From: an uncultured virus (IMG/VR IMGVR_UViG_3300028832_000124)
Lineage: Duplodnaviria > Heunggongvirae > Uroviricota > Caudoviricetes
IMG/VR virus record: IMGVR_UViG_3300028832_000124
DNA: 64,000 nt
Reading direction: 5' to 3' (one strand)
The translations under genes and the position numbers were made by a program. The first letter of the stretch is position 1. Every line of letters starts with the position of its first letter. The notes beneath the pieces are model-generated. The model was not told the origin of the DNA, ran no database searches, and was given only the letters and a program-made list of their open reading frames with translations. Positions 6,082 to 25,542 of this stretch are shown here, piece after piece.

Positions 6082-6082
6082 A

Positions 6083-6565
6083 ATGAGAGAAAGCGGATAT
6101 TACCCACCGGGTGCTGAGTTCGATCCAAACGCACCCTACAACCAATGCGACCCTCCCGAAATGGAACTTGCAGTTAAGGTTACTGAGGTTATGGTGAAAG
6201 ATTCCACCCTCGTAACCAATAACGCTTGGTATGTCGATGACGAGGAAGGTGGCCACTATCTTGAAGATACCAATCTTGAGCCTTGCAAAGAGTGGGCAGA
6301 GCAGGAAGATATTCTTCCCATCACCTTGCAGAAAGCCAAAGAGGAAATCACTAATCTGCGTATTGAAGCCCAAGAACAGCAGAAAAAGCTTGAGGCTCAC
6401 TACGGAGTCAGACATGGTGTTATTCCTGGCTGCAGGGCAGATGATACCTTCATGATGAAAATGCGTAAACATCTTTGGGATGCTATGGAGCGAGTCAGAA
6501 AGCTCAAAGCCCTTGAAGAAGCTCTCGACGGATGGGAGCAAGAAGAAATAGAAGTCGAATATTGA
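6083..6565 (+). CDS. Hypothetical protein
   Basis: N-terminal GYYPPGAEFDPNAPYNQ; 160 aa. Confidence 0.75.
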   Translation: MRESGYYPPGAEFDPNAPYNQCDPPEMELAVKVTEVMVKDSTLVTNNAWYVDDEEGGHYLEDTNLEPCKEWAEQEDILPITLQKAKEEITNLRIEAQEQQKKLEAHYGVRHGVIPGCRADDTFMMKMRKHLWDAMERVRKLKALEEALDGWEQEEIEVEY

Positions 6566-6601
6566 AGTTATAAACCATTTATCAAGTAATTATTAAGTAA
6601 C

Positions 6602-7429: not shown

Positions 7430-7434
7430 GCCCT

Positions 7435-8217: not shown

Positions 8218-8317
8218 GTTCCATGTCTCTCAGGTTGCCCATTGTGCCTGTTGCCATCAGCAGGTTTCCGTGTCCTACAGTGGGCAACTACTATGTAACC
8301 AATTTAAGTTTTAATCA

Positions 8318-9124: not shown

Positions 9125-9135
9125 TATTAGGTAAT

Positions 9136-9696
9136 ATGGTAAGTAATGAGGCTTGGAGAGATGTAGCAAACTACGAAGGATTTTATCAGGTTTCTGATGA
9201 AGGTAGAGTGCGTTCGTTAGCGCATTATCAAGGTAAATGGGATTCTGTTTACGAAAGAAGGTTCCCCAAAATCTTAAAACAAACAAAAGATAAAGATGGT
9301 TATCTATCAGTAATTTTGTGTAAAAAGGGAAAGATACAAAAGTTTCGCGTCCACAGACTTGTTGCTATGGCATTTATTAAAAACCCAAGTAATCTACCTT
9401 TAATAAACCACAAAGACCAAGACAAGCAAAATAATAATGCCAATAATCTTGAGTGGTGCACAGCCAAATATAACGTAAACTATGGTGATAGCTTACAAAG
9501 AAGTGGTGAAAAGCGTAGAAATATACCATCATTATCAAAACCAATTATAATGATATACGATGATGGTAAATCAAGAACTTTTCCTTCTATGAACGAGGCT
9601 GTAAGAACTCTGAATATATCTTGGAAAAGAATACGGAAAAGTATAAAAGAAAATTCAAATATAATTAACAATAATTTTAAGTTTAAGTATTTGTAA
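9136..9696 (+). CDS. NUMOD4-HNH homing endonuclease
   Basis: WRDV.NYEGFYQVSDEGRVRS (NUMOD4); VHRLVA.AF...INHKD..K.NN...NLEWCT (HNH). Confidence 0.92.
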   Translation: MVSNEAWRDVANYEGFYQVSDEGRVRSLAHYQGKWDSVYERRFPKILKQTKDKDGYLSVILCKKGKIQKFRVHRLVAMAFIKNPSNLPLINHKDQDKQNNNANNLEWCTAKYNVNYGDSLQRSGEKRRNIPSLSKPIIMIYDDGKSRTFPSMNEAVRTLNISWKRIRKSIKENSNIINNNFKFKYL

Positions 9697-9697
9697 C

Positions 9698-10117
9698 ATG
9701 GAAGCAACAGGTAAAATTATTTTTGTACTTGAAGCGAAGTCAGGTGTATCTCAGCGTACAGGAAATCCATGGATGACTCAATCTTATGTGCTTGAGGTTC
9801 CAGGGCAGTTTCCAAAGAAAATTCCGTTCACCATCTTTGGTGAGGACCGTATTAAACAATTCGCTATTCAGCCGGGCGAAGATGTAACTATTCAATTTGA
9901 TATTGATGCACACGAATACAACGGCAAGTATTATGCAGAGATACGTGCATACAATGTCATACGTGGCCAACAACAAGCCGCTGCACCTGCTCCAGCACCA
10001 CAACAACAGCAGCCTGATATGTTTGCTGGTCAAGGTCAACAGCAGGCTCCTGCAGCAAATCCATTCCCACCTACTGACGGACAGCAGGAAGGTGATCCGG
10101 ACGACTTACCTTTTTAG
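9698..10117 (+). CDS. DUF3127-like SSB-type protein
   Basis: OB-fold-like N-terminus, Q/P-rich linker, C-terminal DDLPF tail. Confidence 0.85.
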   Translation: MEATGKIIFVLEAKSGVSQRTGNPWMTQSYVLEVPGQFPKKIPFTIFGEDRIKQFAIQPGEDVTIQFDIDAHEYNGKYYAEIRAYNVIRGQQQAAAPAPAPQQQQPDMFAGQGQQQAPAANPFPPTDGQQEGDPDDLPF

Positions 10118-10120
10118 CGT

Positions 10121-10558
10121 ATGAAGCTACTACTTCTTAATACGCGAGAAGGTCTCAAGCCACTTACTGATGATGACTACGACGAGAAGAAAAAGTTAAA
10201 GATTGGCGAGATTTACGAGGTGACTATCAAGAAGCCTCGTAATCTCGCATTCTTCCGAAAGTATTGGGCATTACTAAAGTGCGCTTGGGAATACCTTGAC
10301 GAACGGCAACAGGAGTTCTTCAAGAACAATATTGAAGTATTCCGAAAGTCCTTAGAGATAACTGCCGGATGGTGCGAGCCTCTGTATAATATTCACTCAA
10401 ATGAATGGTTCCACGCTCCAAAGTCCATCAGTTTCGAGAAGATGAATGAGTCAGAGTTCAATATATTATATAATAATGTACGCGATATACTCTTCAAGGC
10501 TATCATCCCAAATATCTCGAAGGAGGAATTTGAACGCAACTTGGTAAACTTTTTATAG
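10121..10558 (+). CDS. DUF1367/NinB-like protein
   Basis: KPRNLAFFRKYWALL and PKSISFEKM.E.EF..LY motifs. Confidence 0.75.
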   Translation: MKLLLLNTREGLKPLTDDDYDEKKKLKIGEIYEVTIKKPRNLAFFRKYWALLKCAWEYLDERQQEFFKNNIEVFRKSLEITAGWCEPLYNIHSNEWFHAPKSISFEKMNESEFNILYNNVRDILFKAIIPNISKEEFERNLVNFL

Positions 10559-10566
10559 TATTGTGT

Positions 10567-11436
10567 ATGTGCGAAGGATTCAAACAAATCTCCAACGACT
10601 TCTTTAAAAGCGACTATTGGCGTCAATCCCGTACTTATAATGATTGCGAAGCTGTCCTGGATATTATGTCGCAGGTCAGATTTGAGGCATCTGAGCATAC
10701 TGCTCGTATCGGAGGTCGCGAAGTAACGTGGGGTCAGGCACAGTGGCCTGCATCTGTTCGATTTCTTGCTGCACGGTGGCACTGGACGGAATGGAGAGTA
10801 AGAAAATTCCTTTCAGGTTTGAGAAGAAAAGGTGTTATTGATACAGCCGATGACCAAGGCGTAAATATGATTACGTTAAAGAAGTATCTAATCTTCAAGT
10901 CAGAGGAATCTCACACACCAACTCACACACTTAACGATGTGGAAATCAGCGAGTTAGCTAAAAAGCTCACACAGCAAATCACACAGCAAGAAGCAGGCTC
11001 ACACACCGCTCACACAAAACATAATAATGGAAAGAATAAAAGAGATTCTTCACTACGTTCAGAATCTACTCTGTTCGATATTGAAGAAGAATTTCCGTTC
11101 TCAGATTTTTGGGAACTTTATGATAAAAAGGTTGGAAAATCTGATTGTCAGAAAGTGTATGCCAAAATCTCCCTTAAAGACAGAAAAGCTATATTTGATT
11201 ATCTGCCCAAGTATTTAGAGGCAACAACTGTAAAGCAGTATCGAAAGAACCCGCTTACATTCCTACATCAGCGTGCTTGGGAAGATGAAATAATAATCAG
11301 AAATCAGAATGAAACAACCTCAGCTGCTACAGGAAGTCGGGCAGCAGGTGCTCCAACAAACGAGCAACTTGTCAACGACACCTACGACCTCATTAATGAA
11401 GCCAGAGCAAGGGAAAACATTGACGATTCTTTCTAA
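10567..11436 (+). CDS. Phage replication initiator (lambda O-like)
   Basis: N-terminal HTH (SVRFLAARWHW), C-terminal F..FWELY.KKVGK...YRKNPLTFL...WEDE; internal iterons. Confidence 0.8.
   Translation: MCEGFKQISNDFFKSDYWRQSRTYNDCEAVLDIMSQVRFEASEHTARIGGREVTWGQAQWPASVRFLAARWHWTEWRVRKFLSGLRRKGVIDTADDQGVNMITLKKYLIFKSEESHTPTHTLNDVEISELAKKLTQQITQQEAGSHTAHTKHNNGKNKRDSSLRSESTLFDIEEEFPFSDFWELYDKKVGKSDCQKVYAKISLKDRKAIFDYLPKYLEATTVKQYRKNPLTFLHQRAWEDEIIIRNQNETTSAATGSRAAGAPTNEQLVNDTYDLINEARARENIDDSF
10910..11045. repeat. Putative replication origin iterons
   Basis: Six TCACACA copies (10911, 10923, 10967, 10979, 10999, 11010) followed by an A-rich tract. Confidence 0.65.
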
Positions 11437-11944
11437 GTTTGGTGACAGAGACCAGTTCTTGGCAAGAGTCAACCCTAAAACTCAGGCTTCATTTGCTCTG
11501 AAAAAGGAGAAAGCCATCATGGGTGACTATCCTACGCTGACGGATATTTGTCTGGCGTATGGCAAAACATTCTCCTTTCAGTGGCTATGCCCTCAGATTG
11601 TGGACTTGTCAAAGTTCACAGGTGCCAAGAATCTCGACAAAGAACAGGTGGAAGGCCTTGCAACTATCATAGCTGCAGAATATCACTACCTGAAAGTTAC
11701 TGAGCTTCTTCTCTTCTTCTACTATTTCAAGACAGGCCGTTATGGTCGTTTCTATGGCTCCGTTGATCCAATGGTGATAACCTGTGCTCTCCGAGATTTT
11801 ATCAAAGAGCGTAACATCTTTATTGACCAGTATGAGCGAGAGCAGAATAACCTACAGCGAGAATTAAACAAACAAGGTGCTATAACTCGCGAGCAATGGC
11901 TTGAGCAAAAGAAACAACTTAGTATTGAGCAAAAAGATGTGTAA
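11309..11944 (+). CDS. Replication-associated protein (putative helicase loader)
   Basis: Follows the initiator; LKVTELLLFF..FKTGRYGRFYGSVDP motif; start may be 11396. Confidence 0.6.
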   Translation: MKQPQLLQEVGQQVLQQTSNLSTTPTTSLMKPEQGKTLTILSKFGDRDQFLARVNPKTQASFALKKEKAIMGDYPTLTDICLAYGKTFSFQWLCPQIVDLSKFTGAKNLDKEQVEGLATIIAAEYHYLKVTELLLFFYYFKTGRYGRFYGSVDPMVITCALRDFIKERNIFIDQYEREQNNLQRELNKQGAITREQWLEQKKQLSIEQKDV

Positions 11945-12170
11945 CTGTATTGAAGAATATAACGCAAGGCTGAAAGCTAAAATGAGCATGCCTTATCTTC
12001 AAGTTGATACTAATATTGCACCGGATGGTACGGAACGTATCTGTGTCAACGGAGTGTATAAGAAAGTATTGAAGGGTGGTCAATTATCAAAGACGTGGTA
12101 TCGCTTTCAGATACCTGCCAAGTTCTGCCCGTTCTGTGGTAAACCGTATGGCAATGAGCAAGGCAAGTAA
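11937..12170 (+). CDS. Small Cys-containing protein
   Basis: MCNC...FCPFCGK. Confidence 0.65.
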   Translation: MCNCIEEYNARLKAKMSMPYLQVDTNIAPDGTERICVNGVYKKVLKGGQLSKTWYRFQIPAKFCPFCGKPYGNEQGK

Positions 12171-12426
12171 TCACGGTACACCGTACATTCTTGACTGCAC
12201 ACCTCCGACACGTCAGCAGATTTGTGCCTGCTGTCATTGGGCCAGAGGATGCAAAGAGTGTTGTAATAAATGTAAAGATGAATGCGCTACTAAATACGAC
12301 TGTCAGATTCCGTTGGAGCATGATAGTGTATGGTGGAACAATATTCTTCGAGCTGTCGGTATTGATGGAATGTTACAACACCAGCCAGACGATATTAAGG
12401 AATATCTAATCAAGAACTATAAATGA
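12154..12426 (+). CDS. Small Cys-rich protein
   Basis: Multiple CxxC motifs; ATGA-type overlap with the methyltransferase. Confidence 0.55.
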   Translation: MSKASNHGTPYILDCTPPTRQQICACCHWARGCKECCNKCKDECATKYDCQIPLEHDSVWWNNILRAVGIDGMLQHQPDDIKEYLIKNYK

Positions 12427-14051
12427 ATAATATCAAGCTACTCTACATTGACCTCTTCTGTGGTGCTGGTGGCACTTCTACAGGAGTTGAGTACGCACAG
12501 CTCAATGGAGAAAAATGTGCGAAGGTGATTGCTTGTGTCAATCACGACCCGAACGCTATTCTATCCCATCAGGCCAACCATCCTGACACGCTACATTTTA
12601 CTGAGGATATTCGGACTCTGAATCTCACACCGCTTGTTGACCATCTACAGAAGATGAAAGTGCAATATCCTGACGCTTTGGTGGTCCTGTGGGCTTCACT
12701 CGAATGTACCAATTTCAGCCGTGCCAAAGGTGGACAGCCTCGTGACGCTGATTCCAGGACGCTTGCAGAACATCTTTTCAGATATATCGAAGCCATCCGT
12801 CCTAACTGGATTCAGATTGAGAATGTCGAGGAATTTATGATGTGGGGTGAACTTGACGAAAACGGTAAGCCTGTATCAAAAGACCAAGGCTCTGATTATC
12901 TCCGCTGGGTGCGCAAGGTACAGAGTTACGGCTACAATTTCGACTGGCGCATTCTGAATGCAGCCGATTTTGGAGCATACACCTCGCGCAAGCGTTTCTT
13001 TGGTCAGTTTGCTCAGAAGGGATTGCCTATCGCGTTTCCTATTCCCACCTACGCCAAGAATGGTGATGAAGGTGGATTGTTCTCAGTATATCACAAATGG
13101 AAGCCTGTACGCGAAGTTCTTGATTTCTCAGATGAAGGTGAATCTATCTTTGGACGAAAGAAGCCACTCTGCGAGAAAACACTTGAGCGAATCTATGCCG
13201 GACTGATAAAGTTTGTGGCTGGAATGTCTCAGAAAGATTTTTCCGCTTTCATCGTGAAGTACAATTCTATGAATAGAGGTGGCCACTATACAGCTCCATC
13301 TATCGACGAGCCATGTCCTACGGTTGCCTGTCAGAATCGGTTAGGTATTGCACAGGTTTCTTTCCTGTCGAAATACTATGGCGGTAAGGACCATAACGAA
13401 TCTATTGATTTACCTGCTGGCACTGTTACGACGAAAGATCATCATGCGCTTGTTGGTGCCGAGTTTATGTCTCAGTATTACGGTAATGGTTTCAATACAT
13501 CAGTGGATGACCCTGCACCAACGGTAACGACGAAGGATAGAATCTCGCTCGTTCGTTGTTTTATTGATAACCAGTACGGCAATGGTACACCGTCATCAGT
13601 GACACAGCCTTGCCCTACAATTCCTACCAATCCAAAGCAGAGTATTGTCAAGTGTAAGCAATTCCTAACGAATCCGTATTCTTTCAAAAGTAATGGTGGC
13701 AGCGTAGATAAGCCGTGCTTCACTCTGATAGCTCGTATGGATAAGATGCCTCCGTATCTCGTATGTACTGAGCAGGGAGAAGTTGGTATTGCTATCTATG
13801 AGGATGATTCTCCGATGACTCGCAAAGTCAAGGAATTTATGGCCATCTATCGTATCATCGACATTAAGATGCGTATGCTTAAGGTGTCAGAACTCAAAAA
13901 GATTATGGGATTCCCTGAGAATTATATTCTTGTTGGCACTCAGTCAGAGCAGAAGAAATTTATCGGCAATGCTGTTGAAGTTAACATGAGTCGTGTTCTT
14001 TGTGAAGCACTCTGTCAGAAACTTTCCAATATTATTAACATAGCAGTTTAA
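12423..14051 (+). CDS. DNA (cytosine-5) methyltransferase
   Basis: DLFCGAGG (I), SLECTNFS (IV), IENVEEF (VI), R.R.F (VIII), GNAV (X). Confidence 0.92.
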   Translation: MNNIKLLYIDLFCGAGGTSTGVEYAQLNGEKCAKVIACVNHDPNAILSHQANHPDTLHFTEDIRTLNLTPLVDHLQKMKVQYPDALVVLWASLECTNFSRAKGGQPRDADSRTLAEHLFRYIEAIRPNWIQIENVEEFMMWGELDENGKPVSKDQGSDYLRWVRKVQSYGYNFDWRILNAADFGAYTSRKRFFGQFAQKGLPIAFPIPTYAKNGDEGGLFSVYHKWKPVREVLDFSDEGESIFGRKKPLCEKTLERIYAGLIKFVAGMSQKDFSAFIVKYNSMNRGGHYTAPSIDEPCPTVACQNRLGIAQVSFLSKYYGGKDHNESIDLPAGTVTTKDHHALVGAEFMSQYYGNGFNTSVDDPAPTVTTKDRISLVRCFIDNQYGNGTPSSVTQPCPTIPTNPKQSIVKCKQFLTNPYSFKSNGGSVDKPCFTLIARMDKMPPYLVCTEQGEVGIAIYEDDSPMTRKVKEFMAIYRIIDIKMRMLKVSELKKIMGFPENYILVGTQSEQKKFIGNAVEVNMSRVLCEALCQKLSNIINIAV

Positions 14052-14067
14052 TTAAATCTTTACTAAC

Positions 14068-14865
14068 ATGAATCAGAATCAAGATTTAAAAATGCAACTG
14101 TTGAAGCAGTTTGGCATTTGTGACCAACCAAAGACTATAGACTTCTGTCGTGAAGCCTATAAGTTCTTAATCGAAGGTGACACTATGAAACTTGTTGGTT
14201 ACGACGAGAATGGTGCACCTATCATCGAAAAGACATCGTTCTCTCCTTACGATACAACTCCAAAGGAGATAACAGCTGTTGACCTTGGACTCCCGTCCGG
14301 TACTCTGTGGGCTGACCGTAACCTTGGTGCCAAATCTCCATCAGACTACGGTGCTTTCGTATCATGGGGTAATACTGACTTGCATTTCCCAGACAAAGGA
14401 GATGTTGATTGGGGTGATAACGATAACGCTTTCAAAGATTACGAGTTTAACTCAGAAGAATACGAAGACACTCCAGGAGCAAAGCTTAAAGGTGATATTG
14501 ACCTCGAACATGACGCAGCGCACGTTAACCTTGGTGGTGACTGGCGTATGCCTACCAAAGAGCAATTCCAGGAACTCTATGATAACTGCAGATGGATTCG
14601 TTCTACCGTTAATGGTGTTAACGGCTATCTCGTAGTTTCTAAGATAAATAAAGCATCCATCTTCTTTGCTTGCTCAGGCTACGGCGTTGGTACGAGTTGG
14701 AGCAATCGCGGTTCGGACGGCCTCTACTGGTCTTCCTCGTTCCTCTCGGCTCGGTCTGCCTACGGCTTGTACTTCGGCTCTGGTGGTGTCAATCCGCAGT
14801 ACTACAACTCTCGGTGCCGCGGGTTCCCCGTGCGCCCGGTTCAGAATATCGTTTCCCAAGAATAA
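14068..14865 (+). CDS. Remote DGR target protein (C-terminal variable domain) in the early operon
   Basis: VDLGLPSGTLWA..NLGA, WRMPT..F.EL domain; 3' end matches the TR. Confidence 0.92.
   Translation: MNQNQDLKMQLLKQFGICDQPKTIDFCREAYKFLIEGDTMKLVGYDENGAPIIEKTSFSPYDTTPKEITAVDLGLPSGTLWADRNLGAKSPSDYGAFVSWGNTDLHFPDKGDVDWGDNDNAFKDYEFNSEEYEDTPGAKLKGDIDLEHDAAHVNLGGDWRMPTKEQFQELYDNCRWIRSTVNGVNGYLVVSKINKASIFFACSGYGVGTSWSNRGSDGLYWSSSFLSARSAYGLYFGSGGVNPQYYNSRCRGFPVRPVQNIVSQE
14660..14844 (+). repeat. DGR variable repeat VR2
   Basis: 185 bp ungapped match to TR 23388-23572 (minus strand); 24 mismatches, all at TR adenines. Confidence 0.97.
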
Positions 14866-14874
14866 CCAAACACT

Positions 14875-14922
14875 CGACTCTGCCAACAAGCCGTTCCACA
14901 AGAACGGCCCAAGGCAGAGTCG
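14875..14922 (+). promoter_or_regulatory. Post-VR2 hairpin (DGR target-recognition candidate)
   Basis: CGACTCTGCC-AACAA-GCCGTTC-CACAA-GAACGGC-CCAA-GGCAGAGTCG. Confidence 0.8.
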
Positions 14923-14938
14923 CATATTGTAACTAAGT

Positions 14939-15166
14939 ATGAAATTCAAAGTTGGTGACAAAATCAGAATTGCGAAGAACTTCATGCGGATGGGCCGAAA
15001 TCATCTTGGCTCAGTCGGCATTGTTCTGGAGCATAGATGTTATGGTGGCAGGTATGTTGGCAACGAACCTACGCATTATGTCGTTAAGTTTGATTGCTAT
15101 AAGGTGCCTCACATCTTTATGCGGTTTGATTTGGAAGATAGCTGTGAATTAATTAAATCTGAATAA
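14939..15166 (+). CDS. Hypothetical protein
   Basis: MKFKVGDKIRI N-terminus typical of small phage proteins. Confidence 0.65.
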   Translation: MKFKVGDKIRIAKNFMRMGRNHLGSVGIVLEHRCYGGRYVGNEPTHYVVKFDCYKVPHIFMRFDLEDSCELIKSE

Positions 15167-15177
15167 AGAAATTTAGT

Positions 15178-15648
15178 ATGTGCAAAAAGAAATTAGTAGT
15201 AGCCGTTGATTTTAACGGCACCTGCGTCACGTATTGTTATCCAGAAGGGACGGGCGAGGACATCGGTGCTGTGCCCGTATTGAAACGTCTGCTGGCTGAA
15301 GGTCATTCGTTGGTGCTTATGACTGGTATCGAGCGAGATGGTGAGTTTGAACTGCCTATCGTTAAGGAACGATGGGATGATATGCTGAAATGGGTGGAGG
15401 ATAACGGCTTGACCTTTGTCGGCATCAACCGTAACCCATTGGAAAAGTACCGCAGCAAGAAACTGACGGCTGACATCTATATCGACGATCATTGCCTGGG
15501 AATCCCAACCAAGTTTGACCCCGAACGGAGTAATCGCCCGTTTGTAGATTGGGACGGTGTGGAGCAACTGCTGGAGATGATGAACGTACTACCATCGACA
15601 CCTCGGACGCATATCACAGTGAAACAACCGTCATTCATTTTCAAATAA
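15178..15648 (+). CDS. HAD-superfamily-like protein
   Basis: VAVDFNGT, K..ADIYIDD motifs. Confidence 0.75.
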   Translation: MCKKKLVVAVDFNGTCVTYCYPEGTGEDIGAVPVLKRLLAEGHSLVLMTGIERDGEFELPIVKERWDDMLKWVEDNGLTFVGINRNPLEKYRSKKLTADIYIDDHCLGIPTKFDPERSNRPFVDWDGVEQLLEMMNVLPSTPRTHITVKQPSFIFK

Positions 15649-15656
15649 GTAGTAAT

Positions 15657-15860
15657 ATGGCAAAGAAAATTGACATAGATAGGGCTATAGACGCTTTTAG
15701 GAGAACTTGCCCTGACTCTACAGAGCTAATACATTTGGATAGGACTTCTGAGCCTTATGAGTGTTTTGGACCAAAATGTAAAGAACACTCGTACAGATGC
15801 AATTATATATGTAAGCGATTACGTAGATTTATTAACATACTAAAAGAACCAGAACAATAA
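15657..15860 (+). CDS. Hypothetical protein
   Basis: ORF from MAKKIDID, in operon. Confidence 0.55.
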   Translation: MAKKIDIDRAIDAFRRTCPDSTELIHLDRTSEPYECFGPKCKEHSYRCNYICKRLRRFINILKEPEQ

Positions 15861-15863
15861 ATC

Positions 15864-16151
15864 ATGGCAAAGACAATTAAGATTACGTTTTATAACCCGA
15901 AGGAACTCTGGATAAAGTTCTGTAATTGGGTGTTTTGGCCACGGCATAAAAAGTGTGTCGATTGGTGCGATTATTACGATGGCGTACTGGATTCTATGAT
16001 TGTTAAAATATTGCAAGATGAGAACGCTAAAGGTACGATTAGTGACGAAACAGCAGAACGGCTTGAAATTGCATTAAAACATGCTAACTATCAAGTTTCC
16101 AAACAAACTGCAGAACTCATGTCAGAACAATATAAATACGAAGACTCATGA
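15864..16151 (+). CDS. Hypothetical protein
   Basis: 95 aa ORF overlapping the next start. Confidence 0.6.
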   Translation: MAKTIKITFYNPKELWIKFCNWVFWPRHKKCVDWCDYYDGVLDSMIVKILQDENAKGTISDETAERLEIALKHANYQVSKQTAELMSEQYKYEDS

Positions 16152-16630
16152 AGAAAATCAAGACTTACAACATCATGCTCTCGAAAGTGTTCCCTGTAAC
16201 ACATGAGAGAAAAGGTGAGCCAACTTTCTTTAGTCAGAAGGTACAGGCTGCAAAATTCCCCACCGTTTATCCTAACGAGACGCCAAAGCTGCACACCATC
16301 AGAGCAAACTATCCTCTTTGGGAGAAACGTATAGCTGAGGTACAATCCGGAAACGCTGAAATTTGTCTACGTCAATGGACTGGTAAACCATATCGCTCAA
16401 AGACGGTAGAAATTATGCGACTGACCGCTGATGATGGTGTCGGCATCCAGTGCCTCACGTTTTATGACAATCGCATCATCTATCCTACCGTCGACAACAA
16501 CTATCAACCGAGCATCAAAGAAATATCGGCCAACGATGGGTTGTCTAAAGATAGCTGGATAGAATGGTTTCGCGGTTACGACCTATCGCAACCAATGGCG
16601 ATAATTCATTTTACTAATTTCAGATATTAA
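16148..16630 (+). CDS. Hypothetical protein, possibly ASCH/PUA-like
   Basis: KLHTIR and ANDGLS...WF motifs. Confidence 0.6.
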   Translation: MKKIKTYNIMLSKVFPVTHERKGEPTFFSQKVQAAKFPTVYPNETPKLHTIRANYPLWEKRIAEVQSGNAEICLRQWTGKPYRSKTVEIMRLTADDGVGIQCLTFYDNRIIYPTVDNNYQPSIKEISANDGLSKDSWIEWFRGYDLSQPMAIIHFTNFRY

Positions 16631-16631
16631 C

Positions 16632-17369
16632 ATGGCAACAAAAATTGAGTGGACTCAAAAGGTGTGGAATCCGGTAACGGGCTGCACCAAGGTAAGCGAG
16701 GCTTGCCAAAACTGTTACGCGGAAGTGATGGCACGACGGCTACAGAAAATGCCTGGCAGTGCTGACAAGTATCGTAATGGCTTCCAGCCGACAATTCATG
16801 TCAGCAGTCTGGGTGAGCCGTTGGAGTGGAAGAAACCTACTATGGTTTTCGTGTGTTCTATGGGCGACCTGTTCCATAAAGACGTATCGTTTGACTTCAT
16901 CGACATGGTGATGAATGTCATCCGTGAATGTCCGCAACACACATTCCAGATTCTTACCAAGCGTCCTGAGCGCATGGCAGAGTATTTCAACGAACTGCGT
17001 GGCGTTCCTCAGAACGTCTGGCTTGGTACGACTTGTGAAAGCGACAAACATTTTGACCGCATCGACCACCTGCGTAAAATCAAAGGTGCAAAGGTGCGTT
17101 TCCTGAGTTGTGAGCCGCTTTTAGGTGACTTGTGGGGTATTAACCTGCGTGGTATTGATTGGGTCATAACAGGTGGAGAAAGTGGATCGTGCGCCCGTCG
17201 TACACCTGTAGAGTGGTTCCGTACCCTTCGTGACGTGTGCCAGCGTAACTTTGTGCCTTTCTTCTTTAAGCAGTGGGGAGCATGGAGTGAGGACGGCATT
17301 AAACAGAGTAAGTATAAGAATGGCTCTCTGCTCGATGGCAGGGAGTGGAAAGAATATCCAAACGTATAA
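16632..17369 (+). CDS. DUF5131 (Gp37/Gp68) radical-SAM-like protein
   Basis: TKIEWT..WNPVTGCTKVSEACQNCYA, SMGDLFH, FQILTKRP, WVITGGESG, FFFKQWG. Confidence 0.92.
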   Translation: MATKIEWTQKVWNPVTGCTKVSEACQNCYAEVMARRLQKMPGSADKYRNGFQPTIHVSSLGEPLEWKKPTMVFVCSMGDLFHKDVSFDFIDMVMNVIRECPQHTFQILTKRPERMAEYFNELRGVPQNVWLGTTCESDKHFDRIDHLRKIKGAKVRFLSCEPLLGDLWGINLRGIDWVITGGESGSCARRTPVEWFRTLRDVCQRNFVPFFFKQWGAWSEDGIKQSKYKNGSLLDGREWKEYPNV

Positions 17370-17371
17370 TC

Positions 17372-17917
17372 ATGTTAGATAACGAAAAACTACAAAAACT
17401 GGCAAAGGAAATCTATGAGATTGCCGTTGCTCATGGCTGGCACGAAGATACCAAGCCTAACGAACTTTGGATGGCCCTTGTTATGTCTGAGGTTGCAGAA
17501 GCAGTCGAGGCAGATAGGAAACACATTTCTGTTAATGGAAACCTTGAAGGATTCCATAAACTGATTGAAGTAGGGCATGATTTTAAGACGGTATATAGAG
17601 ATTACCTCAAAGGTTCTGTTGCAGAGGAACTGGCTGATATTGTCATCCGATTGCTTGACTACATCAACATGCGCTGGGGTGATAAATATGAATGGTGGTA
17701 CAATCCACACAGCTTCCGTATTCCTGACGAGTTCCCTGTGGCTGCATGGAAACTTGTAAAGGTGCATCTTAACGAAGGTAGTATGAATGTCCGTGACAGC
17801 ATCCAGTACGTCATAGAGTGGGCTGATAAACTGAACATCGACCTCGAAGAGCATATCAAGTGGAAGATGCGTTATAACTCTCTCCGTTCATATAAACATG
17901 GTGGCAAAAAGTATTAA
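17372..17917 (+). CDS. MazG-like NTP pyrophosphohydrolase
   Basis: SEVAEAVEADR, EELADIVIRLLD, KMRYN..R..KHG. Confidence 0.8.
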   Translation: MLDNEKLQKLAKEIYEIAVAHGWHEDTKPNELWMALVMSEVAEAVEADRKHISVNGNLEGFHKLIEVGHDFKTVYRDYLKGSVAEELADIVIRLLDYINMRWGDKYEWWYNPHSFRIPDEFPVAAWKLVKVHLNEGSMNVRDSIQYVIEWADKLNIDLEEHIKWKMRYNSLRSYKHGGKKY

Positions 17918-17920
17918 GTC

Positions 17921-18337
17921 ATGGATATAAAAGAACTAATGGTTGGCGACATCGTGGAATACCTCGATGGCGACCAACCTATTCCCGTAGTGGTCGTAAA
18001 GATTGACGGCCCAAGTGATGTAGTATGCCTCAAGCAGAAGAATGGCCATAAGTTCAATACGACCATAGAGTATCTGAGACCAATTCCTATCACAAAGGAA
18101 TTTCTTGAAAAGAATGATTTTGAACTGAATGGAAATTCTTATCATTTCTTTGATGACGATAAACCGTTGGAGATTTTTGTATTCCTTAAAGAAAACAACT
18201 ATAATGGCTCATATACCTATGTTGATATTTCAAGAGGGTGTATAGACATTACTGAAATGCCGATGGAATATGTTCATGAACTCCAGAACGTGCTCATACT
18301 TTGTAAAATAGAACTAACAGAAATAACTCTCCCGTAG
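17921..18337 (+). CDS. Hypothetical protein
   Basis: ELMVGD...PIPIT.EFLEKN...YVHELQN pattern. Confidence 0.75.
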   Translation: MDIKELMVGDIVEYLDGDQPIPVVVVKIDGPSDVVCLKQKNGHKFNTTIEYLRPIPITKEFLEKNDFELNGNSYHFFDDDKPLEIFVFLKENNYNGSYTYVDISRGCIDITEMPMEYVHELQNVLILCKIELTEITLP

Positions 18338-18343
18338 TATAAC

Positions 18344-18820
18344 ATGAAAGAAAACCAATTCTCCGTAGAGCCAGGAATAGGCTCAATCCCAGCAAAAGGT
18401 ACCAAGTGTTGGTACGTTCGTTCTAACATGATAGCCCACAAGTTCATCGTACAGGAAGCCGAATGGATCGGTGGCGTGTCAGACTTGCTACGCATGGCCA
18501 AGGGTAACATGTTTTTCTCTTGGAAGGAAGCCAACGAGTTAGAGACTCAGCTTAATGAGCGTCTTGAAAAACTCAAGGCACTCACTCAGACCGACGAGTA
18601 CAAACAGAAACTCGCTGATGATGAAGCCAAGAAAAAGGCTGAGTCAGAAGAGCGCAAGCGTAAGCGCGAGGAAGCTATTGCCGCCAAGAAAGCTGCTAAA
18701 GAGGCTGCTATCATCGACCCAACGGCAAAGAAGAAGCCCAAAGGACTCACCACCCGAGAGGCCGCTATCAAGTACGAGGCTAAAAAGAAGAAATCTCCGC
18801 ATCCTGATATTATCGTTTAG
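18344..18820 (+). CDS. Hypothetical protein with K/E/A-rich C-terminus
   Basis: 158 aa; last gene of the early operon. Confidence 0.7.
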   Translation: MKENQFSVEPGIGSIPAKGTKCWYVRSNMIAHKFIVQEAEWIGGVSDLLRMAKGNMFFSWKEANELETQLNERLEKLKALTQTDEYKQKLADDEAKKKAESEERKRKREEAIAAKKAAKEAAIIDPTAKKKPKGLTTREAAIKYEAKKKKSPHPDIIV

Positions 18821-18865: not shown

Positions 18866-18986
18866 AAAACAAACTACTAATTCTTTTACTAACCAAAAAC
18901 TATTAACCTTATGAAAAAACTCACTGCTACCGCTGTAGCATACCTGTATTAATAATCAACTATTTTCCGTTTTGTATGTTGCCGTG

Positions 18987-19541
18987 TCACGGCAATAGGC
19001 TTATCGTAATACCAAGTCCTACGAACGGCTCCACCTGTTTTGATTGGAACCCATATCCGTAGCCACCGATAAGCCCAAGATTCCACCTTCTGAACTTTTT
19101 CGTCGCAACAGTCCGTGTCTCTACGATGGAATGAAGAATCTCCTTTTGTCTCACAAAGATGCTATCCAGTTGTGGCTCATATCCGCTGACCCATGCCGTA
19201 TAGGTACTGTCATCCGTGTACATCTTCTGAGTAACTTCTAAGCAGATTGAATCCTGCTTATTTTCCCCAATACTATCCAAATAAGCGGAATCGGCCTTTA
19301 TTGGCACCTTAATATATCGTATCACGGTCTCTTTTTTGGCCTCCGGCATGGAGTCCTTTTTCTCCGTGTACTTGATGACCGTCTTTTCAACGGTCTTCAC
19401 GGGCTGTTCCTGCAGGTCCCGATATTGCTTGTAGTTATACAGCAGCGAGACGATCAACAGGAGAATAATGCCAACCATGCAGATGAAGCATGCTTTCATG
19501 CTGCCACCGCTACGAGCCAACTTTCTTTCGTAGTAGTCCAT
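18987..19541 (-). CDS. Spanin-like lysis accessory protein
   Basis: N-terminal TM helix, C-terminal Gly/aromatic beta-hairpin; last gene of the lysis cassette. Confidence 0.5.
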   Translation of the reverse strand: MDYYERKLARSGGSMKACFICMVGIILLLIVSLLYNYKQYRDLQEQPVKTVEKTVIKYTEKKDSMPEAKKETVIRYIKVPIKADSAYLDSIGENKQDSICLEVTQKMYTDDSTYTAWVSGYEPQLDSIFVRQKEILHSIVETRTVATKKFRRWNLGLIGGYGYGFQSKQVEPFVGLGITISLLP

Positions 19542-21588: not shown

Positions 21589-22119
21589 TTACTCGTTGAC
21601 TTCCTGTTCCTCAGCAGCAGCAAAGAAAGCCTCGTAAGGCTCGAAGTCGATAGCGTCCTTTTCCTGCCAGCCCTCGTTGAGCGTCTGGTTGATGTAGGCT
21701 ACACCTTCGAGATAGAACTGCTTGAGAGTGTTCACTGAGTTGAACGTGTGATAGACGGCCTTACCCTCTGCATCCTCACCGAGCTTGAACTTGATGGGCA
21801 GACTGGCACCTTCCGTCAGCTGGGCAGCGGTCAGAGCACCAAGGTAATTCTCCTGATTCTCCTTAGAAAGGTACACGGGCTTGCCGTTCCAAACAAAGCC
21901 TGTGAGAATCTTCTCGTCGGTCTTCGCGTTGATGTCGGCAATGATAGCCTTCTTCACATCGTCCAGGGTAATCTGAGAAATCTGCTTCTTGTAGATGTAA
22001 ATCTCTACCCAAGTGGCGTTTTCCTCGTCTACTTCCTCGTAGCCGTAGCAAATGATCACTCGACTTGCATCCTCCTTGATGGGAGCAAAGTCTGTCTTTT
22101 TTCCAAAAACCTTGTTCAT
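21589..22119 (-). CDS. DUF4376-like tail-fibre-associated protein
   Basis: IN..TDEKILTGFVWNGKPVYLSKENQ.NY, LPIKFKLG, EGWQEKD. Confidence 0.65.
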   Translation of the reverse strand: MNKVFGKKTDFAPIKEDASRVIICYGYEEVDEENATWVEIYIYKKQISQITLDDVKKAIIADINAKTDEKILTGFVWNGKPVYLSKENQENYLGALTAAQLTEGASLPIKFKLGEDAEGKAVYHTFNSVNTLKQFYLEGVAYINQTLNEGWQEKDAIDFEPYEAFFAAAEEQEVNE

Positions 22120-23320
22120 AATCACCAATTTTTAAATGTTTATAAAATAAAAGTCTGTCTGTTATTTTGGTCATATCCTTGTCGAAGATGCCGATGCGTA
22201 GAATCGGTTTCGTCATCAGCAGTTTCCTGCTCAGATTGTACGATTTCGTGTGTCGGAATATTCCTAAGTAGGAGTTTACCGAACGTAGCACTCTCCAAGG
22301 CTTCGAGTAGTCGAACTCTGCTATCTTTGTCCTGATACGGCCTAAAGCATGATTCGATATGTACGTTCGCCAAGGTTTGATGTAGGCTCCTAAGAACTCC
22401 ACGCCATGATGTACCTCGCTCAGTTCCAGCTTGCCCATGTGTAAGTCCAGACCCAGCTCCGCTTTCAAGAAATCCCTTATTCTCGGCACCAAGCTCAGCA
22501 GTCTCTCCCTGTCTGCACAGACGACGGCTGCATCGTCCACATACCTGCCATAGAATCTGCATTTCAGTTCTCGCTTCATAAACTGGTCGAACACATTCAG
22601 ATAGACATTCGAGAAGAGCTGACTCGTAAGATTGCCGATGGGCAGGCCAAGGCCATCTTCCAAGTGAAGCATCGACTTGGCAGGGTCCAGACCATCCCAA
22701 TCGGAAAGCTTGCCACAGATGATACAGTTCTCTTTCGGATTCAGCATGACGATGATTTCCGTCAGCCATATCACGAAATCCATATCCAGCACGTCGCTCC
22801 ACGTCTGCTTGTTGCCCTTGCATAACCGATGACTGGCCATCTTTCTCAAACTGGCGATAGCTACCTCTAATAGCTTCTTTCGCCTGATGTGCATGAAGTA
22901 GCCGCGAATATCCAAGTGCATCACATAACATTTCCGCTGCCAGTTGTGACTCTCCTTCCTGCAGAAGTCCGTTATACGACCAATGCCATAGTGAGTGCCA
23001 CGCTTCTTGATGCAGCTGTACGTGTCCTGTATAAACGTCCTCTCGAACAGGCCATGCGTGTAGTTGAAATAAAGATGATGTACGATACGGTCCCTGAATA
23101 TTGCAGCGAATATCTCCCTCTTCTTGGGATAGTCCACAATGAAGCATTTCGACTGGTCGGGCTTGTATCTCCGATAGTACAAATCGTCGCACAGCTCTTC
23201 CATGTTCTGCTTGAGATTCCTTTCCCATTTCCTCACATAGCCCCGAGCCGATTTGTGTTTCTTCGCACTGTAGAATGCCTGATAGAGGTCGAGAAGTAAC
23301 TGCTGCCTTGTCAGTACCAT
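21863..23320 (-). CDS. DGR reverse transcriptase
   Basis: KKREIFAA.FRDRIVHH, LDIRGYF, GLPIGNLTSQLFSNVYL (DGR-type SQ motif), YGRYVDD; adjacent to TR. Confidence 0.96.
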   Translation of the reverse strand: MVLTRQQLLLDLYQAFYSAKKHKSARGYVRKWERNLKQNMEELCDDLYYRRYKPDQSKCFIVDYPKKREIFAAIFRDRIVHHLYFNYTHGLFERTFIQDTYSCIKKRGTHYGIGRITDFCRKESHNWQRKCYVMHLDIRGYFMHIRRKKLLEVAIASLRKMASHRLCKGNKQTWSDVLDMDFVIWLTEIIVMLNPKENCIICGKLSDWDGLDPAKSMLHLEDGLGLPIGNLTSQLFSNVYLNVFDQFMKRELKCRFYGRYVDDAAVVCADRERLLSLVPRIRDFLKAELGLDLHMGKLELSEVHHGVEFLGAYIKPWRTYISNHALGRIRTKIAEFDYSKPWRVLRSVNSYLGIFRHTKSYNLSRKLLMTKPILRIGIFDKDMTKITDRLLFYKHLKIGDYEQGFWKKDRLCSHQGGCKSSDHLLRLRGSRRGKRHLGRDLHLQEADFSDYPGRCEEGYHCRHQREDRREDSHRLCLERQARVPF

Positions 23321-23740: not shown

Positions 23741-24301
23741 TTAGAACATAGCAGAAACCTGTCTGCGCAAGTCACGCAATTCATCCCAAGCGTCTCTGGG
23801 CGACATGTCCTCGATAGGAAGCGAGACAATACGGGAAATGATGTCCGAGAAACGCATAATTCTTGGTGCCTGGGCAGACATTTCACGGTCCTCGCGCTTC
23901 TGCTTCTTGCTCTCTACCAATGGCAGGGCGTTTTTCCAATCCTCCTTCATCTTATTGAGGTTGTCAAACGTCACTTCACCAATCTCAGCAGGCAGCTCTA
24001 TCCTTACATCAATCTGTGTGTCGCTGATGGGGTTGAACTCCACACTGCCGTCGTTGGGAACATACTTGCCGATAGACGATGCAGGAAAGCCAAGGAAAGC
24101 GTCAATGTAGCCGTCTTTCAGTTTCTTCGCCAACACCTTCAAAGGCTTCTCCAGAGCCTCGCCAAAAGGAAATGTGGTCATCAGCCATGCGCTCCAATCA
24201 TGGGCGCGATACCAGTCACCTTCCTTAATCAGATGGATGACATTCCACTGAGTAGCTTCCTCTCGCTTGGTTTCAATTCCTATAATTTCTGCTATTGTCA
24301 T
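23741..24301 (-). CDS. DGR accessory protein, MutS-like (MSL) type
   Basis: IHLIKEGDWYRAHDWSA resembles MutS domain I; C-terminal LPIEDMSPRDAWDEL resembles the MutS tail; occupies the accessory-gene slot between VR1 and TR. Confidence 0.7.
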   Translation of the reverse strand: MTIAEIIGIETKREEATQWNVIHLIKEGDWYRAHDWSAWLMTTFPFGEALEKPLKVLAKKLKDGYIDAFLGFPASSIGKYVPNDGSVEFNPISDTQIDVRIELPAEIGEVTFDNLNKMKEDWKNALPLVESKKQKREDREMSAQAPRIMRFSDIISRIVSLPIEDMSPRDAWDELRDLRRQVSAMF

Positions 24302-24438: not shown

Positions 24439-25542
24439 TTACTGAACCGGGCGCACGGGGAACCCGCTGCACCGATCGTCGACGTGCTGCGGATTGACAC
24501 CACCAGAGCTGAAGTACAAGTAGTAGGCATACCGAGCCGAGAGGAACGACGAAGACCAGTAGTAGCCGTACGAACCGCGACCGTTCCAACTCGTACCACC
24601 GCCGTTGCCTGAGCAAGCAAAGAAGAGCAAGTTACCGTTAATCTTCGACTTCAAGTAGATACCTACAACACCGTTGACGGTGACGCGCTTATCAGTCGTA
24701 CCAGCGTCTATGACGGTAGTACCGTCGGCCTGTACGAAGTCACAGTTGTCGAACAACTCCTTGAACTCAGCAGATGTAGGCATGCGCCAAGGACCGCCAA
24801 GGTTAGCACGGGCAGCATCCTGAGAGGGTGCCATGCTGGCAGTGAGCTTGTTGCCAGGAGTGTCACCATAAACCTGTCCGTCGTAGTAGGGAGCCTCAGA
24901 GTTGACACCGCCCCAGTTGTAATCGAATGCACTTGTGCTGATGGGATTGTGGCCATCGGTGTTACCCCAAGAGAAGAAAGTCTTCTCATACTGGAACGGA
25001 CTTGCTGCGAACTTGTCAGCCTGTGTGAGGTCGATGTCGCAGTCAGCCCACTTCAAACCGCTGGGCAGACCCATGTCAACGACGTGGGCAGTAGGTGTCT
25101 GAGTCTGTTCAAGACCCATGTAGCCTACCATATTCCAATAAGTGCCGTCGTACTGGAACTGCACGATGGTACGTGCCTTGATGACTCCGGGCTGGATAGC
25201 AGCACCGTACACGCGGATAGCCTTAGCACCCGTGTTGTTCACGTTCAAAGTAGCACCTGCAATCTCGTTGGCTGTGGTGAAGAACACACTCACCTTACCA
25301 TTCTTCTTGAGAACGAAGTTGGTAATAGCAACAGCCTTCTCAAGTGTGGTGGCAGGGGTAGAGCAAGTACCATAGCCACTACCTGCAGTAGCCATGTCCT
25401 GTATCAACTGCTGGGCAGGGTACTGCTTGTTGGGCGTACCGTCAGGATTGCAAATCATCACAACCTGATCAGCAGATGGAGCACCATTGGTAAGCCCCGA
25501 AACAACCGCCTTGATGGAGTTGATTGTTGAAATTCCTTCCAT
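24439..25542 (-). CDS. DGR target 1: tail-fibre/receptor-binding-like protein
   Basis: ATLNVNNTGAKAI...QYDGTYW fibre-type domain, VDMGLPSGLKWA domain, C-terminal VR. Confidence 0.9.
   Translation of the reverse strand: MEGISTINSIKAVVSGLTNGAPSADQVVMICNPDGTPNKQYPAQQLIQDMATAGSGYGTCSTPATTLEKAVAITNFVLKKNGKVSVFFTTANEIAGATLNVNNTGAKAIRVYGAAIQPGVIKARTIVQFQYDGTYWNMVGYMGLEQTQTPTAHVVDMGLPSGLKWADCDIDLTQADKFAASPFQYEKTFFSWGNTDGHNPISTSAFDYNWGGVNSEAPYYDGQVYGDTPGNKLTASMAPSQDAARANLGGPWRMPTSAEFKELFDNCDFVQADGTTVIDAGTTDKRVTVNGVVGIYLKSKINGNLLFFACSGNGGGTSWNGRGSYGYYWSSSFLSARYAYYLYFSSGGVNPQHVDDRCSGFPVRPVQ
24442..24628 (-). repeat. DGR variable repeat VR1
   Basis: 187 bp ungapped match to TR; 20 mismatches, all at TR adenines. 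Confidence 0.97.

Follow-up and report, generated by a model that had tools for sequence, protein, structure and literature searches.

The gene for target 2 (14068-14865, plus strand, 265 aa) lies within the window, i.e. the whole stretch of 64,000 nucleotides of viral DNA analysed here, and starts 16 nt past the end of the ORF for a C5 cytosine DNA methyltransferase (12423-14051, plus strand, 542 aa; PF00145, E 3.3e-31; phrog_116, E 2.7e-76), in agreement with the original prediction that it directly follows this gene. The translation of the ORF comprises an N-terminal module of ~40 residues, referred to as the N-module, a linker, a C-type-lectin-like domain containing the variable repeat VR2 (14660-14844, plus strand) and a tail of six residues. 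The surrounding plus-strand block (1314-18820) contains genes for an antirepressor, RecT, YqaJ, a PAPS-reductase-like protein, an HNH protein, a DnaD-like protein, the methyltransferase, DUF5131 and a pyrophosphatase. A scan for sigma-70 promoters gave a result at chance level (29 found vs 32.5 expected), and the Bacteroidetes motif TAnnTTTG was not enriched in the window either (49 vs 36.8 +/- 6.3 expected), so that transcription units were derived from gene spacing alone.

The core of the DGR is encoded on the minus strand. The reverse transcriptase (21863-23320; RVT_1, E 2.4e-11; phrog_1423, E 6.3e-78) is a single 485-aa ORF, unbroken through the catalytic motifs, with IGNLTSQ at residue 228 and YVDD at residue 260; the sequence IGxxxSQ is a mark of DGR reverse transcriptases. 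The same strand carries the template repeat (TR) as the master copy (23388-23572), a putative accessory ORF of 186 aa in the Avd position (23741-24301), which was assigned by its place between target 1 and TR and showed no significant Pfam, NCBIfam or PDB sequence match, and the gene for target 1 in the tail module (24439-25542, 367 aa), identified from its ORF and translation, which has weak matches to Lcl_C and FISUMP and contains the variable repeat VR1 (24442-24626).

Scanning both strands of the whole window revealed three copies of the repeat only, i.e. TR, VR1 and VR2. VR2 aligns to TR without gaps and with 24 mismatches, all 24 being located at TR adenines; TR contains 43 A in 185 bases, and the hypergeometric chance of all mismatches falling on A is 9e-19. 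Both the gapless match with adenine-only mismatches and the location of VR2 about 8.5 kb from TR on the opposite strand (8535 nt measured) had been claimed by the original prediction and are borne out. VR1 carries its mismatches at TR adenines as well (20/20), both VRs departing from TR at TR adenines only, and VR1 and VR2 differ from each other at 20 sites, each of them a TR-A position.

At the 3' ends of the repeats and downstream of them we identified elements distinguishing the VRs from TR. The 3' end element of VR2 (14821-14853, plus strand) starts with a GC-rich stretch in which TR, VR1 and VR2 do not differ. Next comes AATATCGTT, which is common to the two VRs only and which we take to be an IMH-like marker, following the IMH concept from work on phage BPP-1. 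After the common ...GTTCAG, VR1 continues with TAATATCGTT and VR2 with AATATCGTT, and it is because of this difference that target 2 loses the stop and gains the residues NIVSQE, just as had been proposed for a one-T difference between the two repeats. A nested hairpin 3' of VR2 (14875-14922, plus strand) has an outer stem of 10 bp enclosing a GC-rich inner stem of 7 bp with the loop CACAA, and its DNA fold of -19.4 kcal/mol (z -6.55) was matched by none of 200 shuffles. The hairpin 3' of VR1 (24345-24392, minus strand) has the same architecture with different stem sequences; the architecture is also present with differing stems 3' of the VRs of relatives, and in the relative G003 one stem change is compensated. 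No hairpin was found 3' of TR (z -0.06), which also lacks the AATATCGTT marker, the cis homing signals, i.e. AATATCGTT and the nested hairpin, being present at both VRs and absent at TR.

Comparison of three related phages, i.e. the window phage, G002, a complete relative of 75,595 bp with terminal repeats, and G003, shows that VR2 follows the template of its own genome. Using non-A sites as informative sites, 18 of the 22 differences between the TRs of the window and G002 are informative, and VR2 matches its own TR at 18/18 in both phages; between the window and G003 there are 48 differences, 36 of them informative, and VR2 again matches its own TR at 36/36. The variation among public variants was analysed in the 90%-identity cluster that contains target 2 and has 22 members, 15 of which, nearly identical to one another, were listed and aligned. 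In these 15 variants, variation affects 20/24 of the VR2 codons whose first or second position is a TR adenine, on average with 4.0 residues, compared to 5/37 of the remaining VR2 codons, and there are 14 distinct VR2 peptides. Outside the VR, columns 1-197 vary at 18/197 positions, and the reading frame is intact in 15/15. As judged from these comparisons of sequences, the rewriting of VR2 is ongoing. For the probable source sample, one assembled contig (Logan; contigs only) spans VR2 with 0 differences. Extra short contigs touching 14710-14741 derive from other elements. Together with the pattern of mismatches and the cis elements, the sequence evidence identifies VR2 as a genuine second target, still being rewritten, of the DGR that diversifies VR1.

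Target 2 and target 1 share 45% identity over the C-terminal ~200 aa (E 3e-65), including the motifs VD.GLPSG..WA and DAA..NLGG.WRMPT, confirming the common C-terminal domain suggested before. Only 68 residues precede the lectin domain in target 2, in which neither a fibre or Mtd_N domain nor any other Pfam family match was found. Hydropathy was judged by Kyte-Doolittle values and not by a dedicated signal-peptide predictor: the mean does not exceed 1.0 in any 19-residue stretch of target 2 and is -0.69 over the first 30 residues. The family scan and these values agree with the earlier claim that target 2 is devoid of a fibre domain, a TM segment and a signal peptide. Virion receptor-binding proteins, too, usually combine a conserved N-terminus with a C-terminus that varies. 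On the sequence level, target 2 matches Lcl_C weakly (E 8.1e-5; 23.3 bits, under the Pfam cutoff of 34.9), and a sequence-profile search of the PDB gave 0 matches at E<=1. The AlphaFold2 model has a mean pLDDT of 65.9, with values below 50 in the VR, and predicts with low confidence two helices and two short strands for the N-terminal 68 residues. Comparing this model (pLDDT 65.9) by VIA-align resulted in a Z of 3.9 for both TaqVP (rmsd 6.3, 120 residues aligned) and Mtd (rmsd 3.6, 111 aligned); searching the PDB with the model by Foldseek returned no match at E<=0.001, and the ESM Atlas no usable match for residues 1-68. These models weakly suggest membership of target 2 in the lectin fold. 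Prediction of a homodimer scored 0.29 (mark 0.42), being neutral as evidence either way.

Searching with the N-terminus of target 2 yielded 23 homologues and 33 representative clusters at E<=1e-3, and from alignments of these we here define the N-module family. Its members have 190-276 aa and carry a conserved N-terminal module of ~40 residues fused to different lectin-fold types, with the core ...DFCR.AY.F... being invariant and also present in target 2. The N-module shows 58-61% identity when compared between phages in which the identity of structural proteins does not exceed 39%. Scanning 11 members against Pfam found 0 families at E<=1, a search for longer, fused forms found none, and a single 71-aa fragment represents the shorter forms. 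In a phage collection, tblastn with the 45-residue N-terminus gave no match at E<=1 and with the whole of target 2 distant lectin-domain matches only, in 7 records; a literature search for the string DFCREAY retrieved no paper. Fourteen cellular proteins homologous to the lectin domain were inspected; 12 have signal- or lipoprotein-like N-termini as judged by eye, the other two carrying the N-module.

The genomic setting of the N-module gene is conserved as well. In all six further loci scanned, it is placed among replication, recombination or modification genes; in locus L019 it lies ~1.5 kb into an operon diverging from an S24 repressor. With these six loci and the phage Bacuni_F1, the search of related phages for the same placement, proposed earlier as a check, was successful, and the gene is kept among replication genes in several unrelated phage lineages. 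In the relative G005 the target 2 gene is retained although no TR was found there.

We slightly favour a model in which target 2 is a diversifiable intracellular binder that is rewritten in trans, is not part of the virion and is co-transcribed with the replication/modification block. According to this model, one DGR of a ~75 kb rumen/gut Bacteroidales phage would copy a single template into two genes, mutagenising its adenines. The DGR, consisting of reverse transcriptase, TR and the ORF in the Avd position, is housed in the tail module, with target 1 as the adjacent tail-module protein, and target 2 would be recognised in trans because it has kept the cis elements, i.e. the GC-rich 3' end, AATATCGTT and the nested hairpin with the CACAA loop. 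Target 2 would combine the N-module, predicted as helix-loop-helix, with a putative lectin-fold domain, the rewriting affecting the face that binds the ligand. Its gene most likely shares a transcript with that of the C5 methyltransferase in the recombination/replication/DNA-modification block, and the protein may act in the infected cell as a non-virion diversifiable binder in the conflict of phage and host. From gene position alone we infer its early expression, action in the cytoplasm and a role in anti-defence or takeover; the kind of ligand we infer, too. A more far-reaching version, which we regard as unlikely, would make the N-module lectin proteins a class of their own, i.e. binders produced early, acting inside the cell and diversified by DGRs, comparable on the side of the phage to an antibody repertoire, the N-module coupling to a conserved host or phage factor and the rewritten face sampling host defence or takeover targets, so that one template would programme extracellular as well as intracellular binders.

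Somewhat unlikely, in our view, is that target 2 is a virion component, i.e. a further adhesin or a decoration protein whose gene lies outside the structural module, with the N-module docking to a tail or capsid protein and the lectin face binding a second surface receptor or a mucosal glycan. The conserved N-terminus with the variable C-terminus, the 45% identity of the binding domain to that of the tail-module target and the mostly surface-directed appearance of the cellular homologues of the lectin domain would all fit a virion adhesin, and Hedzet et al. took both targets of Bacuni_F1 to be adhesion proteins, according to the accessible text (PMC8143477). Furthermore, one domain of a tail protein (34337-38308, residues ~820-1270; 26-39% identity) is common to 3/3 complete N-module phage genomes compared and could be a docking site. 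However, the gene is found on the strand of the replication/modification genes and never in the late operon, in the window, the six loci and Bacuni_F1, target 2 has no fibre or Mtd_N-type domain, and no structural protein shared by these phages (<=39%) comes near the N-module in conservation (58-61%).

It is quite improbable that target 2, being non-structural, acts outside the cell as a soluble lectin freed at lysis, coating receptors on debris, vesicles or neighbouring cells and thereby sparing the progeny dead-end adsorption or excluding competitors. Target 2 has no export signal, yet cytoplasmic proteins are freed by lysis, its binding domain is the same in type as those of target 1, which binds receptors, and of lipoproteins on cell surfaces, and VR1 and VR2 originate from one template. 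On the other hand, the two repeats differ from each other at 20 positions and each is rewritten on its own, therefore the same ligand is not required, and no sequence feature speaks for a lysis-released lectin specifically. That target 2 is a duplicated lectin domain without function, rewritten as a bystander only because it retained the homing signals, is highly improbable: the domain and cis elements it shares with target 1 would allow for this, but the intact frames (15/15 listed cluster members) with nearly invariant residues 1-197, the conservation of the N-module over 33 representative clusters, the setting of the gene kept in several phage lineages and its retention in G005, in which no TR was found, argue against it.

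The DGR of Bordetella phage BPP-1 diversifies a single, adjacent tail-fibre target, Mtd, which has a trimeric fibre domain. The window phage shares with BPP-1 the A-specific transfer from TR to VR, a VR placed 3'-terminally in a gene for a lectin fold, putative in the case of target 2, the GC-rich 3' element and the downstream hairpin, and differs by having a second target with a predicted helix-loop-helix N-terminus in a non-structural block. The core idea of a two-target DGR with a non-structural target has already been published, and the window phage adds to the known two-target phages. Thus, from the original claim of a remote target in the early operon, the position outside the structural module, in a recombination/replication/modification block, stands, whereas the claimed novelty does not, Benler et al. 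2021 (Microbiome 9:78, PMC8008677) being earlier. In the accessible part of their study, the 'Quimbyviridae' are described as having a DGR with one structural and one distal, putatively non-structural target, the latter located on the opposite strand in a defence island among methyltransferases and other counter-defence genes. Measured against this description, the window phage is similar in the probable ~75 kb genome of a Bacteroides/Prevotella phage, in the single DGR with target 1 after tail-fibre genes, and in the distal target 2, which is read as non-structural and lies on the opposite strand in a block of methyltransferase and counter-defence-type genes. The reverse transcriptase of the genus Quimbyvirus is reported there over three overlapping frames, while that of the window is one ORF. 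The TerL of the window shares 50.7% identity with those of LoVEphage and BI-TP1, the window phage being a candidate member of the 'Quimbyviridae'. BI-TP1 shows the Quimbyviridae-type two-target layout with 12/12 VR2 mismatches on adenines; its second target (gp84, 194 aa), unlike target 2, has an internal VR, a Mtd-type repeat and no N-module (hhalign E 0.53). The literature search retrieved no paper connecting LoVEphage with Quimby names, and later work on Quimbyviridae and DGRs (e.g. PMC12636319) assigns, in the text accessible, no function to the second target.

A distant second DGR target was also described for the Bacteroides phage Bacuni_F1 by Hedzet et al. 2021, the remote one being interpreted, in the part of the paper available, as adhesion- or fimbrial-tip-like (PMC8143477). 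We located it in the genome (MT635598.1) between DNA polymerase A and a C5 methyltransferase, with 16/18 mismatches at TR adenines. As target 2, it is small (224 aa), signal-less, of putative lectin fold and far from the DGR core; its body shares 49% identity with the N-module proteins of loci L029-L031 and its N-terminus weakly resembles the N-module (hhalign E 0.0043, probability 8%). It differs from target 2 in its lectin domain of the DUF1566/Lcl_C subtype, and its hairpin is simple with a GNRA-like loop, compared to the nested hairpin with a CACAA loop in the window. Beyond these phages, Wu et al. 2018 (NAR, PMC5758913) reported non-adjacent targets in 45/372 DGRs, many phage-associated ones having one adjacent and one non-adjacent target in the same prophage, at distances within 50 kb; the accessible text of this survey neither sorts targets by phage module nor describes an N-terminal module. 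For the tentaclins, Baykov et al. 2023 (PMC10743442) likewise described two differently built proteins diversified by a single phage DGR, the role of the second being unclear according to the excerpted text; unlike target 2, tentaclins carry the lectin domain at the N-terminus with Ig domains after it, are encoded inside the cassette and are regarded as receptor-binding proteins.

DGRs are usually seen as tools for switching receptors. A second target conserved among early replication/modification genes suggests that diversification in phages extends to a protein with a role after entry, a point already raised by Benler et al. 2021, as far as their accessible text goes (PMC8008677). Here, we add a recognisable family with a conserved N-terminal module and interchangeable lectin domains in several Bacteroidales phage lineages, including the cultivable phage Bacuni_F1, though the N-terminus there is only a diverged match, a conserved architecture of the cis hairpin, and population evidence for the rewriting of the remote repeat. 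If target 2 is a virion adhesin, receptor-binding genes can be kept in early modules; if it acts inside the cell, viruses of bacteria would have in it their first hypervariable intracellular binder.

A single template repeat (TR) and a single reverse transcriptase serve two targets of the diversity-generating retroelement (DGR) in the window. The TR (23388-23572, minus strand; 43 adenines in 185 bases) matches VR1, the variable repeat of target 1 in the tail module (24442-24626, minus strand), with 20 of 20 mismatches at TR adenines, and aligns without gaps to VR2 of the remote target 2 (14660-14844, plus strand), all 24 mismatches again falling at TR adenines (chance if random, 9e-19). An exhaustive ungapped scan of both strands of the window returned three copies only, i.e. 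TR, VR1 and VR2, and the repeat finder agrees in placing VR2 8535 nt from the TR on the opposite strand, so that the gap-free, adenine-only match and the distance of about 8.5 kb claimed in the original prediction both hold. On the minus strand target 1 (25542..24439) is followed by an Avd-position ORF (24301..23741; 186 aa), for which no family match was found, the TR and the reverse transcriptase (23320..21863; RVT_1, phrog_1423), which carries YVDD and IGNLTSQ motifs, IGxxxSQ being a mark of DGR reverse transcriptases. The final ~90 codons of its ORF (21863-22128), which overlap a DUF4376 ORF (21589-22128), specify a low-complexity tail rich in Arg and His, making the true end of the enzyme uncertain; a frameshifted reverse transcriptase was reported for Quimbyvirus by Benler et al. 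2021 (PMC8008677).

The remote target bears its own homing signals. Downstream of the common ...GTTCAG, VR1 reads TAATATCGTT and VR2 reads AATATCGTT, by which VR2 loses the stop and its frame extends six codons further, as had been claimed. The AATATCGTT marker followed by a nested hairpin is present 3' of both VRs, neither element being found at the TR. In this hairpin a short internal loop separates an outer stem of 10 bp from a GC-rich inner stem of 7 bp, which is capped by a CACAA loop, the architecture being alike and the stem sequences unlike between VR1 and VR2. The VR2 hairpin (14875-14922, plus strand) folds with -19.4 kcal/mol (z -6.55; 0 of 200 shuffles as low), and the stretch 3' of the TR gives z -0.06. 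The same architecture lies 3' of the VRs in the related phages examined, including a compensated stem change in the provirus fragment G003. Homing in phage BPP-1 is guided by a 3' marker together with a hairpin downstream, and recognition of target 2 in trans is explained by its having both of these, 8.5 kb away and on the opposite strand. One copy of a 40-nt direct repeat (18959-18998 and 23316-23355; 75%) with a hairpin-forming core immediately follows the TR, where the reverse transcriptase gene starts; the other lies where the early-type and late-type blocks converge.

Comparison across phages and populations indicates that VR2 is rewritten in nature and that the target is active. The related phage G002, a genome of 75,595 bp with terminal repeats that is syntenic over window positions 83-64000 at about 89-97% identity, and G003 (about 70-85% identical to the window) contain TR, VR1 and remote VR2 at matching places, VR2 mismatches being at adenines in 16/16 and 15/15 cases, respectively. 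Window and G002 show 22 TR differences, and at the 18 informative non-A sites VR2 equals its own TR in both phages (18/18); towards G003 there are 48 TR differences, VR2 following its own TR at 36 of 36 informative non-A sites. The 90%-identity cluster of target 2 comprises 22 public sequences, and in the 15 aligned, some of which derive from phages whose TR differs slightly, 20 of the 24 VR codons whose first or second base is an adenine in the TR are variable (mean 4.0 residues per position), compared to 5 of 37 other VR codons (mean 1.14) and 18 of 197 positions in residues 1-197 (mean 1.10), resulting in 14 distinct VR peptides. Within the window VR1 and VR2 differ at 20 positions, all TR adenines, and were thus written separately. 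Among assembled contigs of the probable source sample, one spans VR2 with 0 differences. Two near-identical loci in relatives, L029 and L031, show 26 differences in 1164 nt, 12 of them within a 64-nt VR stretch. Several family members go out of frame mid-protein, at the VR start (P0032, L020:1080-1994) or farther upstream in the lectin domain (P0030, P0033, P0037); this may be genuine frameshifting or misassembly of a mixed, hypervariable population.

Target 2 (14068-14865, plus strand; 265 aa) belongs to a conserved, signal-less protein family kept among early-type genes. Over its C-terminal ~200 residues, where the motifs quoted originally are shared, identity to target 1 is 45% (E 3e-65). 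No hydrophobic stretch was found in the protein (top 19-residue Kyte-Doolittle mean 1.0; residues 1-30 average -0.69). Strong conservation marks residues 1 to ~40, the N-module: residues 1-70 as query gave 23 proteins of 233-272 aa, and a profile run against 1.84 billion representatives gave 33 matches at E<=1e-3 and 17 at E<=1e-10, of which 30 of the 33 are N-terminal, in proteins of 47-270 aa. P0043 and the long P0060 and P0061 have only several short internal matches that look spurious. No longer fused forms of the N-module were found, and the shorter forms amount to one 71-aa fragment. The module, which matches no Pfam family, is joined to varied lectin-type C-termini, among them FISUMP-like (window) and DUF1566/Lcl_C domains; the 187-aa representative P0053 combines it with a non-lectin-like C-terminus. 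In structure prediction, proposed originally as a check, AlphaFold2 yields two helices (3-15, 24-39) and two short strands for the N-module (pLDDT 54-61), the whole model averaging pLDDT 65.9 with the VR below 50. With VIA-align, residues 67-264 recover solved DGR variable proteins and FGE-sulfatase-type folds as top rows, at weak scores (TaqVP, Z 3.9, rmsd 6.3, 120 aligned; Mtd, Z 3.9, rmsd 3.6, 111 aligned; TvpA, Z 3.4), which leaves the predicted lectin-type fold tentative. In bacterial genomes 173 relatives of the lectin domain were detected; of 14 inspected by eye among the best 80 of 173, 12 have signal- or lipoprotein-like N-termini and the remaining 2, in Bacteroidales MAGs, have the N-module.

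The gene starts 16 nt past a 542-aa C5 cytosine methyltransferase gene (plus strand; PF00145, E 3.3e-31), in line with the claimed adjacency. Both lie in a plus-strand block (1314-18820) that comes after a CI-like repressor gene, itself on the other strand, together with genes for an antirepressor, RecT, YqaJ, a PAPS-reductase-like protein, HNH, DUF3127, a DnaD-like protein, a HAD-type phosphatase relative, DUF5131 and a pyrophosphatase; lysis-region, DGR, tail, tape-measure and head genes occupy a minus-strand block (18987-52037). A low-GC stretch (8001-10000; 0.368 versus about 0.45 around) contains the PAPS-reductase-like gene (8318-9124) and a NUMOD4/HNH endonuclease gene (9136-9696), the latter probably a homing-endonuclease insertion. 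In the proposed search of related phages for the same early-operon target, the N-module gene lay amid replication, recombination or modification genes in 6/6 further loci scanned: after DnaD-like and DUF6633 genes (L016), immediately 3' of a C5 methyltransferase (L017), between a radical-SAM-like gene and DnaB helicase (L018), ~1.5 kb into an operon diverging from an S24 repressor and integrase (L019), after SSB, RecT and polynucleotide-kinase phosphatase (L027), and flanked by DNA polymerase A and a sliding clamp, methyltransferases following downstream (L029). The viral contig of L017 also starts with a second paralogue of the lectin domain, truncated by the contig end and differing in its N-terminus (L024). 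In the 135-kb phage G004 the remote VR is 48 kb from TR and VR1. The 77-kb phage G005 (L027/L042/L043) yielded no TR; its N-module lectin gene, located in the recombination block, differs from a lectin paralogue of the tail module in a manner that is not adenine-specific, which suggests the DGR being lost and both lectin genes kept. Promoter-like motif scans were at chance, with no such motif near target 2. At 52239-52338, where the head operon and the terminase gene diverge, lies a 45-nt inverted repeat (82% complementary) with three matches (52264 -, 52296 +, 52306 +) to TAnnTTTG, the Bacteroidetes -7 element; these are candidates for late promoters of divergent orientation or for an operator.

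The 16-nt gap and the lack of a nearby promoter-like motif suggest that target 2 would be co-transcribed with the methyltransferase; it would be made before virion assembly and would act inside the cell. We lean towards target 2 being a non-virion, intracellular binder, as this is favoured by the gene setting and by an N-module better conserved than any shared virion protein. The module-sharing phages are otherwise poorly related, their structural proteins reaching <=39% identity versus 58-61% for the N-module. A virion adhesin or decoration protein docked via the N-module would fit the conserved-N/variable-C build and the one tail-protein domain common to all three complete genomes compared, but is rather unlikely. 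That target 2 is a soluble lectin set free at lysis appears improbable, and a bystander duplicate very improbable. The original interpretation is reasonable in part, its functional side being a prediction.

The idea of a second target repeats a published finding. Wu et al. 2018 (PMC5758913) reported non-adjacent targets in 45/372 DGRs, the phage-associated ones usually pairing an adjacent target with a non-adjacent one of the same prophage, and Hedzet et al. 2021 (PMC8143477) described two targets in Bacuni phages, one being distant. In the Bacuni record inspected the distant target (224 aa; 16/18 mismatches at adenines) is flanked by DNA polymerase A and C5 methyltransferase; in its body it shares 49% identity with the N-module protein of L029 type, and its N-terminus matches the N-module only weakly. 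The most relevant prior paper, Benler et al. 2021 (PMC8008677), describes "Quimbyviridae" (median genome 75.2 kb; hosts Bacteroides, Prevotella, Parabacteroides) with the first DGR target after tail-fibre genes and a second, putatively non-structural one distal to it on the opposite strand, amid methyltransferase and further counter-defence genes; its authors infer involvement in the conflict between phage and host. For TerL, identity of the window to LoVEphage and BI-TP1 is 50.7%. BI-TP1 shows the Quimbyviridae layout, with VR2 in gp84 (12/12 mismatches at adenines) amid methyltransferases and a tRNA ligase, but unlike target 2 its second target lacks the N-module; gp84 (L134:12208-12792), in which the VR is internal, is recorded as 'hypothetical protein' with no mark as a DGR target. 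Roux et al. 2021 (PMC8144416) state that their method is unable to detect remote targets, and the available text of preprint 10.1101/2024.11.15.621889 mentions no remote, non-adjacent or in-trans targets. PMC12694917 reports DGRs from temperate Bacteroidaceae phages, and neither its available text nor that of later papers citing Quimbyviridae and DGRs gives a function for the second target. The N-module core string occurs in no paper of the literature searched. New are a family that combines one N-terminal module with exchangeable lectin domains in different phage lineages, a conserved nested-hairpin signal, and population and cross-phage evidence indicating that the remote site is rewritten.
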